From the sequence record ON568341.1: a DNA stretch of 64,000 nucleotides; one strand, written 5' to 3'. Origin of the DNA: Escherichia phage UE-S1. The translations under genes were made by a program, and so were the position numbers. Below, piece after piece: positions 7,727-39,226 of this stretch. Positions within the stretch are counted from its first letter, which is position 1. Each line of letters begins with the position of its first letter. The notes below the pieces were generated by a model that did not search any database, was not told where the DNA came from, and was given only the letters and a program-made list of their open reading frames with translations.

Positions 7727-7980
7727 CAGTAATGGTGATTATTGGTTTTTTAGTAATATTGTTATTCATTTTTATTTTATCAATGGTTGTCATTGATGAA
7801 CCTAATAGTTCTGTTAGAAATTATGAAGTTCGTTTTTCGGCACAAAACAATAAGTACTATATTGTAAACTGTGTGCATCGTAGTGAGAAAAAGGTAACTG
7901 GTAGGTTTGGATTTACAATTTATTATAAAGATCGAGTAGAAGCTGATATGATTTGTCAGAAACTTAATACAGTAGAATAA
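7723..7980 (+). CDS. small membrane protein
   Basis: Hydrophobic N-terminus IIGFLVILLFIFILSMVVI; bidirectional terminator follows. Confidence 0.45.
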   Translation: MTVMVIIGFLVILLFIFILSMVVIDEPNSSVRNYEVRFSAQNNKYYIVNCVHRSEKKVTGRFGFTIYYKDRVEADMICQKLNTVE

Positions 7981-8007
7981 AAAAAGGAGCCACATGGCTC
8001 CTTTTTT
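7981..8007. terminator. bidirectional intrinsic terminator
   Basis: A5-GGAGCC-ACAT-GGCTCC-T6. Confidence 0.7.
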
Positions 8008-8281
8008 ATGTTTTTACGTAATATGTATAGACAATTATGTAGTTTGATTTTGCGAATCATATACATAGTACAAAAACCTTCAACACTTGCTTCTTCATCT
8101 TTCAATTTAATGAAGAACGTATCATCTCTTAGATTATTAAAATATATAGTTTACAGAAAATAACTTCTCACTATTAATTTTAGCACCTGTAATTTCGATA
8201 CCATCAATAGAAAAAGGTTAATGCAATTATACTTCACGAAGGAAAGTGCATGAAAATTATCATGCACTATATTATTAAAAT

Positions 8282-36215: not shown

Positions 36216-36827
36216 ATGAACAAATATCATGTTTATTATACAACAAAGTTATCCCTTCTTGATGAATTAAATCACCGAAGTACTAAGATGAAACGTTATA
36301 CTTTAAATGGTATTACTTTTCGATATTTCCCACAAAAAGTCCTTACTTTTGTCAAGAATCCAAAATGCGTGGCATGTGGGATTGAAGCCACTGAAGTACG
36401 CATTGAACGTACATTTAGTTCTGATCCAGTTTATGGTAAACCACATTTAAATGTATATGCGGTATGTGGTCTTTATGAAGTGTTGATGACAGTTGATCAC
36501 AACCATCTGGCATCGAAGGGTGGTTGTGATTTAGAGTCAAACTTTAATACTATGTGCTCCAAATGCAATCAACTACGTTCTAATAAAACCGAAACAGTTG
36601 ATGAGTTTCTTGAGAAAGTTAAAGATCGTAATCTTCTCCAAGAACATATGAATAAATTCTTTAACGTACAAAAAAAGAAAAATAACATTGACAAGTCGAA
36701 ACTACTAGAAGAACGTAGGTTACGTCAAGAATTATGGGAAACAGACCATCTATGGCATGTTCGAGAATTTGGTCGTCATATGAAAGCTTTGAAAAAAGAA
36801 CAGAAGAAATTGAATAAACATGATTGA
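36216..36827 (+). CDS. HNH endonuclease
   Basis: VDHNHLASKGGCDLESNFNTMCSKCNQLRSN (HNH core with CxxC); CxxC also upstream (CVAC); strong terminator follows. Confidence 0.7.
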   Translation: MNKYHVYYTTKLSLLDELNHRSTKMKRYTLNGITFRYFPQKVLTFVKNPKCVACGIEATEVRIERTFSSDPVYGKPHLNVYAVCGLYEVLMTVDHNHLASKGGCDLESNFNTMCSKCNQLRSNKTETVDEFLEKVKDRNLLQEHMNKFFNVQKKKNNIDKSKLLEERRLRQELWETDHLWHVREFGRHMKALKKEQKKLNKHD

Positions 36828-37636: not shown

Positions 37637-37656
37637 TGGGACATTATATGTTCCAA

Positions 37657-37665
37657 TGATATAAT
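37657..37665 (+). promoter_or_regulatory. extended -10 promoter element
   Basis: TGATATAAT at the start of the ORF-poor island. Confidence 0.4.
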
Positions 37666-37739
37666 GTATATAGAAAATGACAACGGACATTGAAAAATGG
37701 ACACTGAGAACCTACTTCTCTTGAAAATGTAAAGGATAG

Positions 37740-37856
37740 ATGAGCTTTACCGTTGTAGCGAACAGCAGAAGAAACCTGTTAGAGTACTGGCATTCAAACA
37801 AACACGATATAAGACCACGAATCACGGCGACACGGCTGTATAAAGAACTCCGATAA
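37740..37856 (+). CDS. candidate small ORF (38 aa) in island
   Basis: AAAGGA RBS 4 nt upstream of ATG; MSFTVVANSRRNLLEYWHSNKHDIRPRITATRLYKELR. Confidence 0.25.
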   Translation: MSFTVVANSRRNLLEYWHSNKHDIRPRITATRLYKELR

Positions 37857-37879
37857 GCATACAGAGAGTTCCTAGATAG

Positions 37880-38044
37880 ATGTATAAGGTTCGCACCTTA
37901 CCAGATTTGCTAAGGGAGTTCAAGAATTGCGGACGCATTTTTACAAGAAAGTTGCGTCCAAAATTTGAGAACAAGTACTACTTTGATCGAATAGAGTTAG
38001 TACTGAGTGCTGTTGATGAAAAGACCAGCGACCGTTGCATATGA
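37880..38044 (+). CDS. candidate small ORF (54 aa) in island, contains repeat copy A
   Basis: Encodes ..FTRKLRPKFENKYYF..; weak RBS; stop overlaps next ATG (ATGA). Confidence 0.25.
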   Translation: MYKVRTLPDLLREFKNCGRIFTRKLRPKFENKYYFDRIELVLSAVDEKTSDRCI

Positions 38045-38139
38045 CTGCGATAGAGAGAAACCGAGCAACCCGCTTTCGCTCTCTAATTTTTGGTACAAGA
38101 AAGATCCGTCCAAAATTTGAGAAATTCGCAATTCGATAA
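38041..38139 (+). CDS. candidate small ORF (32 aa) in island, contains repeat copy B
   Basis: Encodes ..FGTRKIRPKFEKFAIR; the repeat is in the same frame as in the 54-aa ORF. Confidence 0.25.
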   Translation: MTAIERNRATRFRSLIFGTRKIRPKFEKFAIR

Positions 38140-38161
38140 TATCCGATGCCATCATCGTCAA

Positions 38162-38186
38162 GAGAGACTTAATTGTCTCTTTTTTA
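38162..38186 (+). terminator. intrinsic terminator at end of ORF-poor island
   Basis: GAGAGAC / GTCTCT stem then T6. Confidence 0.6.
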
Positions 38187-38325
38187 TTACCTTCATTCCC
38201 CTGCGGGGGGATGTAATAGTCCTCAACAAATCCCGTCAAGTTTTTAAAGTACATTATCATTTTTAGAAGGAACTAGTTTACGAAGTAAACGCAGTGACTT
38301 CTTGAGTTACGAGAGAACGAAGTGA

Positions 38326-38754
38326 ATGAGTAACACAACGAAAATATCCGATAAATCTGAATTAACACAAATGTTATTCAAAGAATATTTTGAGTTTCAG
38401 ATAAAAGACGAACATCAATTACCACAGCAATATTTGAAAAGAATTAAAGATCCGTCAATAATTACTAAAGAAACAAATTTTTATAATAGTATTTTTGATT
38501 TCGTTAAATCAGTTCATACAACAAGACCTATTGTAGTTTTGTTTTTTGATAAATCTATTCCTTTAGTAGTTCCTGAAAATGTATTTTTTATTTCAGAAAC
38601 TGATTTAAATAACCAAAGTACTGTAAGTAGATTAAGAAATTGCTTACTTGTAGTATGTGATTCTTCATTATATAATAACAGAATACTATGGGATAGAAGT
38701 AAACGCAATGCAATTGCAGAAATGAATCCTGAAGTTACATTTATTATTAACTAA
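38326..38754 (+). CDS. hypothetical protein
   Basis: ORF in array. Confidence 0.5.
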   Translation: MSNTTKISDKSELTQMLFKEYFEFQIKDEHQLPQQYLKRIKDPSIITKETNFYNSIFDFVKSVHTTRPIVVLFFDKSIPLVVPENVFFISETDLNNQSTVSRLRNCLLVVCDSSLYNNRILWDRSKRNAIAEMNPEVTFIIN

Positions 38755-38785: not shown

Positions 38786-39226
38786 ATGGAAAATATTGAA
38801 AATTTAAGACATGTTATGGATTTTATCATTGATACTGAAGAAGATAATGCTTATGATGAAATCTTACTAACTTTTATTGAAAATAGTTTGTTTTTAAGTT
38901 CTGCTGCACATAGCTGGCATTTACAAAGCCGTTTCTACACAAAGCATCTTCAATTGGATGAACTATACAAAGAGTTACCAGAGTACGTTGATGCATTTGT
39001 TGAGGGTATAATGAATACTCGTGGGGCATTACAGGTAGGTACTGGTAACAGTTATCGATTTACCCACATTGAGGATTGTGTTCCAATTCTTGAAGAGTAT
39101 TCTAGCCAATGTAAAGCAATTCATGCTATGCTCGAAGAGGCAGAAGACTATGGCAGTACTAACACACTAGAAGATATTATGAGTTTTGTTGATGGTGTGC
39201 TTTACAAACTTAAAGTTTTACAATAA
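38786..39226 (+). CDS. hypothetical protein
   Basis: AAGGAGAG RBS; terminator follows. Confidence 0.5.
   Translation: MENIENLRHVMDFIIDTEEDNAYDEILLTFIENSLFLSSAAHSWHLQSRFYTKHLQLDELYKELPEYVDAFVEGIMNTRGALQVGTGNSYRFTHIEDCVPILEEYSSQCKAIHAMLEEAEDYGSTNTLEDIMSFVDGVLYKLKVLQ

Follow-up and report, generated by a model that had tools for sequence, protein, structure and literature searches.

The gene-poor stretch at positions 37637-38325 of a 64,000-nucleotide (nt) segment of Escherichia phage UE-S1 (ON568341.1), which at its full length is called the window here, is almost certainly a self-contained gene for a structured non-coding RNA of ~515 nt, with a promoter for the host sigma-70 polymerase at one end and an intrinsic terminator at the other. 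This RNA founds a new family, unmatched in the libraries and the literature searched, and it is always followed by a conserved tail. The family totals ~90 copies, found in Asteriusvirus, Mimasvirus, Eneladusvirus, Alcyoneusvirus and their metagenomic relatives. Since the RNA is kept in multiple copies by the phages and has been copied whole by bacterial islands, it is probably central to the workings of RaK2-like phages and of the elements that exploit them.

A discrete transcription unit

The source is a jumbo coliphage of the Asteriusvirus type. The 741 bases around the locus are 99% identical to those of PBECO4, G17 and phAPEC6 and 97% identical to those of 121Q, in which the counterpart lies between gp515 and gp517 and has as its sole annotation a minus-strand 'hypothetical protein' of 51 amino acids (aa). 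The first-pass annotation, made from the letters of the window, had singled out this region as poor in open reading frames (ORFs), and in fact the ORF list holds no plus-strand ORF of 60 aa or more between 37637 and 38325. The G+C content is 0.40-0.42 within the stretch, versus 0.24-0.33 in the flanks.

The same annotation had proposed a discrete unit with its own promoter and terminator, which is borne out on both sides. A promoter scan found a sigma-70-type element that matches the consensus at 10 of 12 positions and includes the TG of the extended -10 element (TG-n-TATAAT) that had been read near 37657. This TGnTATAAT box is kept at the same place in the alignments of relatives and of bacterial-island copies, and transcription is predicted to start near 37672. 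The terminator, which had been placed at about 38162-38186, was missed by a simple scan, although it is visible in the sequence and its stem covaries across relatives: both sides have changed in four of its five pairs (GAGAC/GUCUC, GUACA/UGUAC, GAUCC/GGGUC), and the run of six to seven U residues is conserved. In one divergent class of paralogues the RNA is joined to the tail without an intervening terminator hairpin, so read-through forms must exist.

Fold and covariation

The shared fold comprises two domains with ~14 helices, in which a three-way junction lies beside a pseudoknot of 7 base pairs (bp). The model was built from an all-against-all scan of alignment columns (33 sequences) together with RNAalifold on sub-alignments, and covariation was counted on two tool-made alignments, A1 for the 3' domain (35 sequences, 46 pairs) and A2 for the 5' domain (33 sequences, 30 pairs), with 500 shuffles and slid partners as controls. 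Standard pairs occupy 92.4% of the cells in the 3' domain, against 76.3% in the shuffles and 36-44% when the partners are slid, and both sides have changed in 35 of its 46 pairs. The 5' domain behaves in the same way, with 93.3% of the cells paired (76.5% in the shuffles, 31-52% slid) and changes on both sides in 20 of 30 pairs, so that the two domains together show them in 55 of 76 pairs. None of the 500 shuffles attains any of the observed measures in either domain.

The pseudoknot is paired in 100% of the 35 sequences and all seven of its pairs are compensated, as can be seen in the variants AUCGAAU/AUUCGAU, AUUGUAU/AUACAAU, CUUGAAU/AUUCAAG, UUCAUGU/ACAUGAA and ACUGUAU/AUACAGU. It directly abuts P11, the closing helix of the three-way junction P11-P13. 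The 3' domain also holds 42 invariant columns, mostly unpaired, among them GACCGUUGC and, in the loop of P12, GCAACCCGC. The G-U pairs assign the RNA to the plus strand, and its 5' and 3' ends do not pair with each other. Folded as a single sequence, the stretch is more stable than its shuffles (minimum free energy z = -2.7), and the covariance model of the 3' domain (R1) reaches 206.7 bits at positions 37971-38190 of the window, 207 bits on 121Q and 201 bits on the copy in an Escherichia coli island.

The small reading frames

The three ORFs of less than 60 aa that the first-pass annotation had located are indeed in the ORF list, and on their account it had offered, next to a structured non-coding RNA, a pair of micro-proteins or a dual-function locus. 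Only the structured RNA stands, on the strength of its covariation, its ~14 helices and its pseudoknot, while the two coding options are rejected because the ORFs decay in relatives. Their conservation was examined in the nearest diverged relatives, Turkey5 (86% identical) and A4 (79%). ORF1 runs into a premature stop at aa 17 in Turkey5 and at aa 26 in A4; in ORF2 the start codon ATG is replaced by ACA in Turkey5, and a stop interrupts the frame at aa 33 in A4; and ORF3 stops early in both, at aa 26 and aa 21, respectively. Substitutions across the ORFs are spread evenly over the three codon positions, with no third-position bias, and other clades carry block deletions of 20-82 nt, the size of a module, inside them. 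The three ORFs are chance reading frames inside the RNA gene. That they (38, 54 and 32 aa), or an ancestral single ORF since decayed, should have functional products is extremely improbable: the AAAGGA before ORF1, the ATGA overlap between ORF2 and ORF3 and the repeat lying in frame in both would suit such genes, but starts are lost and stops gained already at 79-86% identity, no relative examined has a long ORF here, and the very same nucleotides covary as RNA helices. The earlier annotation had named a single long intact gene in relatives, or a lack of conservation, as outcomes that would speak against its proposal; neither was seen, which favours a real element.

Many GenBank records of relatives show two to six short 'hypothetical proteins' on either strand across the RNA gene, which are probably spurious calls; examples are the six in SHEFM2K, g347/g348 in fHe-Yen9-04, RaK2_00245 and Muenster_135. 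The jumbo phages 121Q, PBECO4, RaK2, GAP32 and CBB are cultured and widely studied, some of them as candidates for therapy, and in their records the region is either blank or filled with such proteins. Annotation pipelines should cease to call ORFs across this RNA gene.

The direct repeat as a hairpin module

The direct repeat described by the first-pass annotation is real, with a length of 29-30 nt and copies identical at 28 of 30 positions (self-BLAST E-value of 5e-7), beyond what is expected by chance. The first copy lies where it had been placed, at 37943-37971, whereas the second had been given 8 nt too high, at 38103-38131 instead of 38095-38123. The same shift affects CGCAATTC, which is found at 38127-38134 and not at 38135-42. 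This octamer had been paired with GAATTGCG as an inverted pair around the repeat, and as a helix that pair is rejected by the covariation, which employs the bases of both strands elsewhere: UCGCA (38126-30) pairs with UGCGA (38046-50), and GAATTGCG is part of the stem of repeat module 1.

Each copy of the repeat belongs to a hairpin module that extends a peripheral helix, and the modules differ between classes of the family. The Asteriusvirus copy in the window bears the module at both P8 and P13. Copies of the GAP32 type have it at P13 only, with a short GCCA-GAAA-UGGC hairpin stub at P8, and in the copies located between EndoVII and the baseplate hub only P8 bears it, P13 being without it. 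Swaps of this kind between tetraloop stubs and extension modules are typical of compact tertiary folds, such as those of RNase P and group I/II introns. The peptide TRK(L/I)RPKFE, read in the same frame from both copies, is a by-product of the duplicated RNA hairpin module.

Distribution of the family

A sensitive blastn search of 50,697 phage records matched the stretch in 71 of them. Distant RaK2-like phages retain 67-71% identity across 430-540 nt (GAP32, CBB, XbC2, fHe-Yen9-04, Serratia BF, the pEa_SNUABM phages, Hallingskeid, Kaldavass, SE_PL, Munch, fENko-Kae01 and EJP2), while in RaK2, K64-1 and Muenster BLAST showed only a core of 45 nt. The matched region has no annotation in most records of the distant relatives. 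The baseplate-hub protein of these same phages is only 42-58% identical, and the conservation of a non-coding stretch to such a degree therefore indicates strong selection.

Further copies were sought with the invariant core motif GACCGTTGCAYRTGACNGYRATA (38030-52 in the window). A scan of IMG/VR with this query returned 20 loci, with two copies in each of six genomes, including 121Q, RaK2 and Serratia BF. Viral, genome and metagenome collections were also scanned with relaxed and refined versions of the motif, and the results were filtered by a profile hidden Markov model (HMM). The core-motif scans amount in all to 20 + 53 + 3 loci, and profile search confirmed every one of the 53 from metagenomes. 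Some 26 extra loci from the relaxed scan of viral contigs were discarded as chance matches in G+C-rich coding DNA, and the pattern was tightened for the genome and metagenome scans. The genomes of RaK2-like jumbo phages hold two to four diverged copies each. The 64-kb window holds one; no second copy was found in it, and a weak match of the 3'-domain covariance model at 7891-8012 (16 bits, E 0.06 by a rough calibration) is probably noise.

The phage copies occupy fixed syntenic sites. At the first, the order is EndoVII, RNA, a small gene and the baseplate hub, an arrangement shared by at least nine lineages, among which is that of the second copy of 121Q. The second site follows the homologue of GAP32_343, the third is in front of the homologues of Muenster_136, and the fourth comes after the sigma-like ORF244 of RaK2. 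Fixed sites of this kind imply that the paralogues are old and stably placed rather than recently mobile. No protein gene is conserved downstream across the sites as a partner of the RNA.

Two minor observations concern individual phage loci. On one metagenome contig (L113 128-271, minus strand), a weak partial match confined to the 5' domain (40 bits) is located ~0.8 kb downstream of a complete copy and may be what is left of a tandem duplicate. In XbC2, Kaldavass and several metagenomic phages, a gene for an ADP-ribosylglycohydrolase is located directly downstream of the module (L007 2271-3197, L003 2573-3480). The island of Silvania likewise has a gene of this kind, together with DarT (L075 1368-3728), which could reflect exchange between phages and islands or counter-defence.

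The conserved tail

The tail that follows the RNA has been found at every locus with sufficient downstream sequence (88 loci, 68 of them distinct), in all four phage contexts as well as in the islands, and is unique within the window. Its G+C-rich hairpin had been noticed by the first-pass annotation through CCCCTGCGGGGGG, given at about 38199; this sequence starts at 38198 and occurs once in the window. In two other hairpins of the tail the stems covary around conserved loops: one has the loop (A)ACGAAGUGA, and in the other CAUUC-GAA-GAAUG is exchanged for CAAUC-GAA-GAUUG or CUAAC-GGA-GUUAG. Since no plus-strand gene comes after the tail at the EndoVII site, a mere role as translation leader does not account for it.

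RNA and tail also have in common a heptamer, CGUCAAG, present at 38156-38162 (the 3' strand of P14) and again, 78 nt away, at 38234-38240. The variable base of this CGUCARG motif agrees between the two copies in nearly all sequences (AAG/AAG, AGA/AGU, AAA/AAU), and RaK2 has CUUCAAG twice. No conserved third sequence complementary to both copies, which could serve as their shared pairing partner, was found. The TATAAA-like box of the tail resembles a late promoter reported for CBB and GAP32 (PMC5259590). The tail is not a miniature version of the RNA, as the two have no profile similarity.

Copies in bacterial islands

The complete module, 76% identical to that of the window, is present in 2 of 5,426 complete E. 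coli genomes, with promoter, RNA bearing both repeat modules, terminator, G+C hairpin and a second CGTCAG. In strain LR-29-1 (NZ_AP027515.1), it is found at L074 14860-15500, within an island of ~10.6 kb inserted between ffs and ybaA (L074 10900-21300), which also contains a tyrosine integrase split by IS3, unknown genes, an mSLOG-DUF4326/DUF488/DuOB cluster and a resolvase. The other copy is at NZ_CM130020.1 245292-245781. About 450 nt downstream of the module of LR-29-1, in A/T-rich unannotated DNA, there are iteron-like repeats (ACGATCGGTAATA / TATCGATCGTTAT / TATCGATCGTTTT, L074 15900-15985), which are suggestive of an origin or an operator.

A scan with one genome per species identified the module in Silvania hatchlandensis, in Enterobacteriaceae RIT714 and in a mis-binned metagenome-assembled genome, and the metagenome scan added several further chromosomal contexts. 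From these finds a second family of islands emerges (L075, L090, L092, L105, L082, L084 and L094). Its members have a tyrosine integrase or a large serine recombinase adjoining a host gene (miaB, an rlmI-like gene, corC or tilS), after which the RNA module is encountered. Next comes a convergent gene for a CI-like S24 repressor, which is paired with a divergently oriented HTH_35 gene. Genes for an unknown protein of 286 aa, an LprI-like protein and a resolvase follow, and the defence cargo consists of either DarT with an ADP-ribosylglycohydrolase or KwaB of the Kiwa system. In most loci of this family the module is beside the integrase or recombinase, and in 7 of 7 it converges on the gene for the CI-like repressor. 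No phage homologues were found for the tested island proteins that flank the RNA, and for most of the core proteins of the islands Pfam and PHROGs gave no useful information.

The E. coli copy resembles one class of phage paralogues and the copies of the Silvania type resemble another, so that the islands have probably captured the module at least twice. The RNA by itself probably does the cell no harm, given the strong constitutive promoters that the island copies have retained. Transduction of an island by a jumbo phage has been reported in Pseudomonas, where JPTI55 transfers the island I55, which holds an integrase and defence cargo and is without transfer genes (PMC12595487). This makes satellites of jumbo phages a realistic category, and the second island family may consist of satellites of RaK2-like jumbo phages. 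The two systems are alike in integrase and defence cargo; they differ in host and phage, and no shared RNA has been reported for I55 and JPTI55. The island copies provide a concrete sequence marker for seeking jumbo-phage satellites, a newly opened field.

Comparison with known RNAs

The first-pass annotation could not place the region in any family, and library searches agree with it. The 4,227 models of Rfam 15 include RNase P, transfer-messenger RNA (tmRNA), group I/II introns, ROOL, GOLLD, OLE, HEARO, raiA, 6S and signal recognition particle RNAs, and none of them matched anywhere in the window at gathering score. When E-values up to 10 were admitted, the stretch yielded five matches to eukaryotic small nucleolar, micro- and long non-coding RNAs, all at chance level (15-24 bits versus cut-offs of 45-80). 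ARAGORN detected no transfer RNA or tmRNA gene in the 64 kb, and no prior description of the RNA, nor of an Asteriusvirus transcriptome, was found in the literature searched.

In general character the RNA recalls ROOL, GOLLD and RNAs of the OLE/raiA type, which are likewise of ~0.5 kb or more, with many helices, pseudoknots and invariant unpaired nucleotides, were found by comparative genomics and are often borne by phages, ROOL and GOLLD by prophages as well. Its fold is unrelated to theirs, without a covariance-model match even at E up to 10, and unlike them it is present as several diverged copies per genome at fixed sites, has an obligatory tail and has been copied whole by islands. It therefore adds a pseudoknotted RNA of ~0.5 kb to the short list of large RNAs without an assigned function and, unlike most of these, it does so in tractable E. 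coli phages. RNase P RNA, tmRNA and group I/II introns are of a similar size class and share with it pseudoknots and peripheral swaps of tetraloops and extensions; contrary to the introns, the present RNA has no host gene to splice. Two resemblances noticed by eye were discarded. One was to RNase P (UAGAUGA, CAGAAnnCCCG), in which the order of the strings differs, they pair locally (P5) and not as P4, and the models are silent; the other was to a string of the thiamine pyrophosphate riboswitch, ACCUGAUC, which is supported neither by the models nor by the pairing pattern.

The jumbo phage PA5oct, a relative of 121Q and RaK2, produces abundant intergenic non-coding RNAs of 236-451 nt throughout infection, which make up to 5% of the phage reads (PMC7318152). 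Two of them, ncRNA001 and ncRNA002 (L073 764-999 and 14452-14902), defined by RNA sequencing and highly expressed, are not detectably related to the present family: profile HMM and covariance model revealed no homology in PA5oct 7.5-23.5 kb, where both are located, and no common motifs were seen by eye. Other large RNAs, independent of this one, may therefore be present in related jumbo phages.

Possible modes of action

The multi-copy layout and the fixed association of RNA and tail point to a core process, either the start of replication or the timing of expression. Our tentative preference, by analogy, is for a cis-acting and portable origin of replication primed by RNA, of the kind of the T4 R-loop or of ColE1 RNA II, a reading that we slightly prefer over a trans-acting RNA. 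According to it, the host polymerase would fire the promoter immediately upon infection, the folded RNA, either as such or extended by read-through, would remain annealed in the tail, and a T4-type replisome would then load there. An origin is favoured because several copies are kept at fixed dispersed sites, because the tail is never separated from the RNA, because islands without a recognised replication or transfer gene carry the whole module beside their integrase, and because its constitutive expression in islands is probably harmless.

The known systems provide partial parallels. In ColE1 the primer is RNA II, a structured molecule of ~550 nt that bears a hairpin and a U-run near its 3' end. 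T4 has at least five origins, each formed by a promoter and a downstream A+T-rich element, in which the RNA of the R-loop is the primer, and oriE requires an early promoter; these origins are located at transcription strand switches, and plasmids with an origin or with homology to the phage are replicated in infected cells, the latter mostly as long concatemers (PMC3016281). As in ColE1 RNA II and in oriE, oriF and oriG of T4, a host-polymerase promoter precedes a conserved non-coding element by ~0.5 kb in the present case, several origins exist per T4 genome, and the copy at the EndoVII site lies at a strand switch, as T4 origins tend to do. There is, however, no sequence similarity to the ColE1 and T4 origins, no equivalent of the antisense RNA I is seen, and here a true terminator precedes the tail.

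Several observations weigh against an RNA-primed origin. The covarying canonical terminator between RNA and tail should stop most transcripts before they reach any unwinding element, the A+T content of the tail does not markedly exceed that of the genome, and the copy in the window is not at a strand switch. The T4 origins share neither sequence nor RNA fold among themselves. Moreover, the 42 invariant columns and the fully compensated pseudoknot are more reminiscent of a core for catalysis or protein binding than of a primer, and the ends of the transcript are those predicted from the DNA.

Close behind in likelihood, though itself doubtful, comes a folded RNA acting in trans, in which case the ~515-nt transcript would be an abundant early product serving as a ribozyme or as the subunit or scaffold of a complex with a phage protein. 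The active or binding site would then consist of the invariant nucleotides of the junction and loops, in a fold stabilised by the peripheral modules, and the island copies would be decoys or would exploit the phage partner. The promoter and the covarying terminator point to a discrete RNA, the invariant nucleotides are mostly unpaired, and the exchange of GNRA- or UUCG-capped stubs for long modules in peripheral helices is found also in RNase P and group I/II introns. Among the known structured RNAs of comparable size, most, indeed nearly all, act in trans. A precedent for abundant RNAs in a related phage exists in PA5oct (PMC7318152), even though those RNAs are not detectably related. On the other hand, one would expect redundant copies of a trans-acting gene to disappear, but many genera still have diverged copies at fixed loci; the unbroken link between RNA and tail, which extends to the islands, is left unexplained; and no partner protein is encoded next to the RNA, whose neighbours vary by site.

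Control of transcription in cis is unlikely. The RNA and its terminator would gate read-through into the tail and then into downstream genes, in the sense orientation (in the window and at the GAP32-type site) or antisense to convergent genes such as the baseplate-hub operon, with a phage factor relieving termination and so timing expression; in the islands, that factor would switch off the CI-like repressor upon infection. This would agree with the position of the conserved terminator directly before a conserved structured leader, with the start codon of the next gene enclosed in the last hairpin of the window's tail, with the convergence of the RNA on the repressor gene in 7 of 7 islands and on late baseplate-hub genes at the EndoVII site, and with the read-through forms implied by the class of paralogues without terminator. 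Nevertheless, the known RNAs of processive antitermination (put, EAR) measure 70-120 nt, so that 500 nt of such invariance would be excessive, the downstream genes are unrelated between sites, and no antiterminator has been identified.

Whether as a primed origin or as a factor-gated switch, the module could be an RNA-dependent, cis-acting handle built on a large pseudoknotted RNA, by which RaK2-like phages are linked to the islands that exploit them, a proposal that we regard as speculative. If it were true, the islands would be replicated, induced or mobilised on phage infection and would be the first jumbo-phage satellites recognisable by a shared RNA.

It is very improbable that the element works at the DNA level only, as a homology handle for recombination-dependent replication, a packaging site or a protein-binding array with incidental RNA structure: islands have copied it, T4 replicates any plasmid homologous to its genome (PMC3016281) and the co-varying CGTCARG copies are compatible with a DNA-binding protein, but selection on DNA alone would not uphold compensatory changes, strand-specific G-U pairs and a pseudoknot, an identity of 70-76% is low for homologous recombination, and the copies are located away from the genome ends.

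Coordinates and neighbouring genes

Table 1. Elements of the RNA gene and its tail, with the chance ORFs that overlap them, in window positions.
Feature	Position	Strand	Remarks
Sigma-70-type promoter	37638..37665	+	-35 GGGACA 37638-43, 16-nt spacer, extended -10 TG-n-TATAAT 37657-65
5' domain of RNA	37672..37972	+	helices P1-P8
P1 hairpin	37688-99	+	GAAA loop
P2	37712-14/37737-39 and 37719-22/37732-35	+	conserved loop GAAAAYGUA
P3	37744-46/37757-59	+	
P4	37762-66/37835-39	+	encloses P5
P5	37776-79/37824-27	+	optional extension 37780-37823
P6	37845-50/37866-71	+	
P7	37885-89/37896-900	+	
Invariant AAGGGA	37912-17	+	inside near-invariant CUAAGGGAG 37910-18
P8	37918-21/37969-72	+	bears repeat module 1; read from alignments, left out of covariation counts
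Repeat copy 1	37943..37971	+	loop and 3' strand of hairpin module extending P8
3' domain of RNA	37974..38162	+	helices P9-P14 and pseudoknot
P9	37974-84/37993-38004	+	loop AUCGAAU 37986-92
Pseudoknot, 7 bp	37986-92 with AUUCGAU 38131-37	+	P9 loop to strand just 3' of junction
P10	38008-12/38026-30	+	
Invariant GACCGUUGC	38030-38	+	
P11	38046-50/38126-30	+	UGCGA/UCGCA, 100% paired
P12	38053-57/38073-77	+	loop AAACCGAGCAACCCG, within which GCAACCCGC is invariant
P13	38080-83/38119-22	+	bears repeat module 2
Repeat copy 2	38095..38123	+	inside hairpin module extending P13
P14	38145-48/38156-59	+	only U-G/C-G; no both-side change
Intrinsic terminator	38164..38186	+	GAGAC/GUCUC stem 38164-68/38175-79, 6-nt loop, U6 run
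Conserved tail	38187..38334	+	always after RNA; structured, roughly 135-170 nt across family
Tail G+C-rich hairpin	38193-38214	+	UUCAUUCCCC-UGC-GGGGGGAUG
Tail block UCCUCAACAAAUCCCGUCAAG	38220-40	+	contains second CGUCAAG
A/T-rich TATAAA-like box	in tail, after UCCUCAACAAAUCCCGUCAAG	+	
Tail hairpin GUUUAC-GAA-GUAAAC	38276-90	+	
Tail hairpin GUUAC/GUAAC	38306-10/38330-34	+	loop: conserved ACGAAGUGA and AUG of next gene (38326)
ORF1	37740-37856	+	38 aa
ORF2	37880-38044	+	54 aa
ORF3	38041-38139	+	32 aa from ATG; listed as 34 aa from TTG at 38035

Two genes upstream of the RNA, at 36216-36827 of the window, there is an ORF for an HNH endonuclease (203 aa), annotated likewise as gp513 in 121Q, which is unlinked to the RNA in other phages. 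Two genes downstream, at 38786-39226, lies a Dps-like gene, which corresponds to the 'starvation-inducible DNA-binding protein' gp518 of 121Q and to DpsA of Turkey5.

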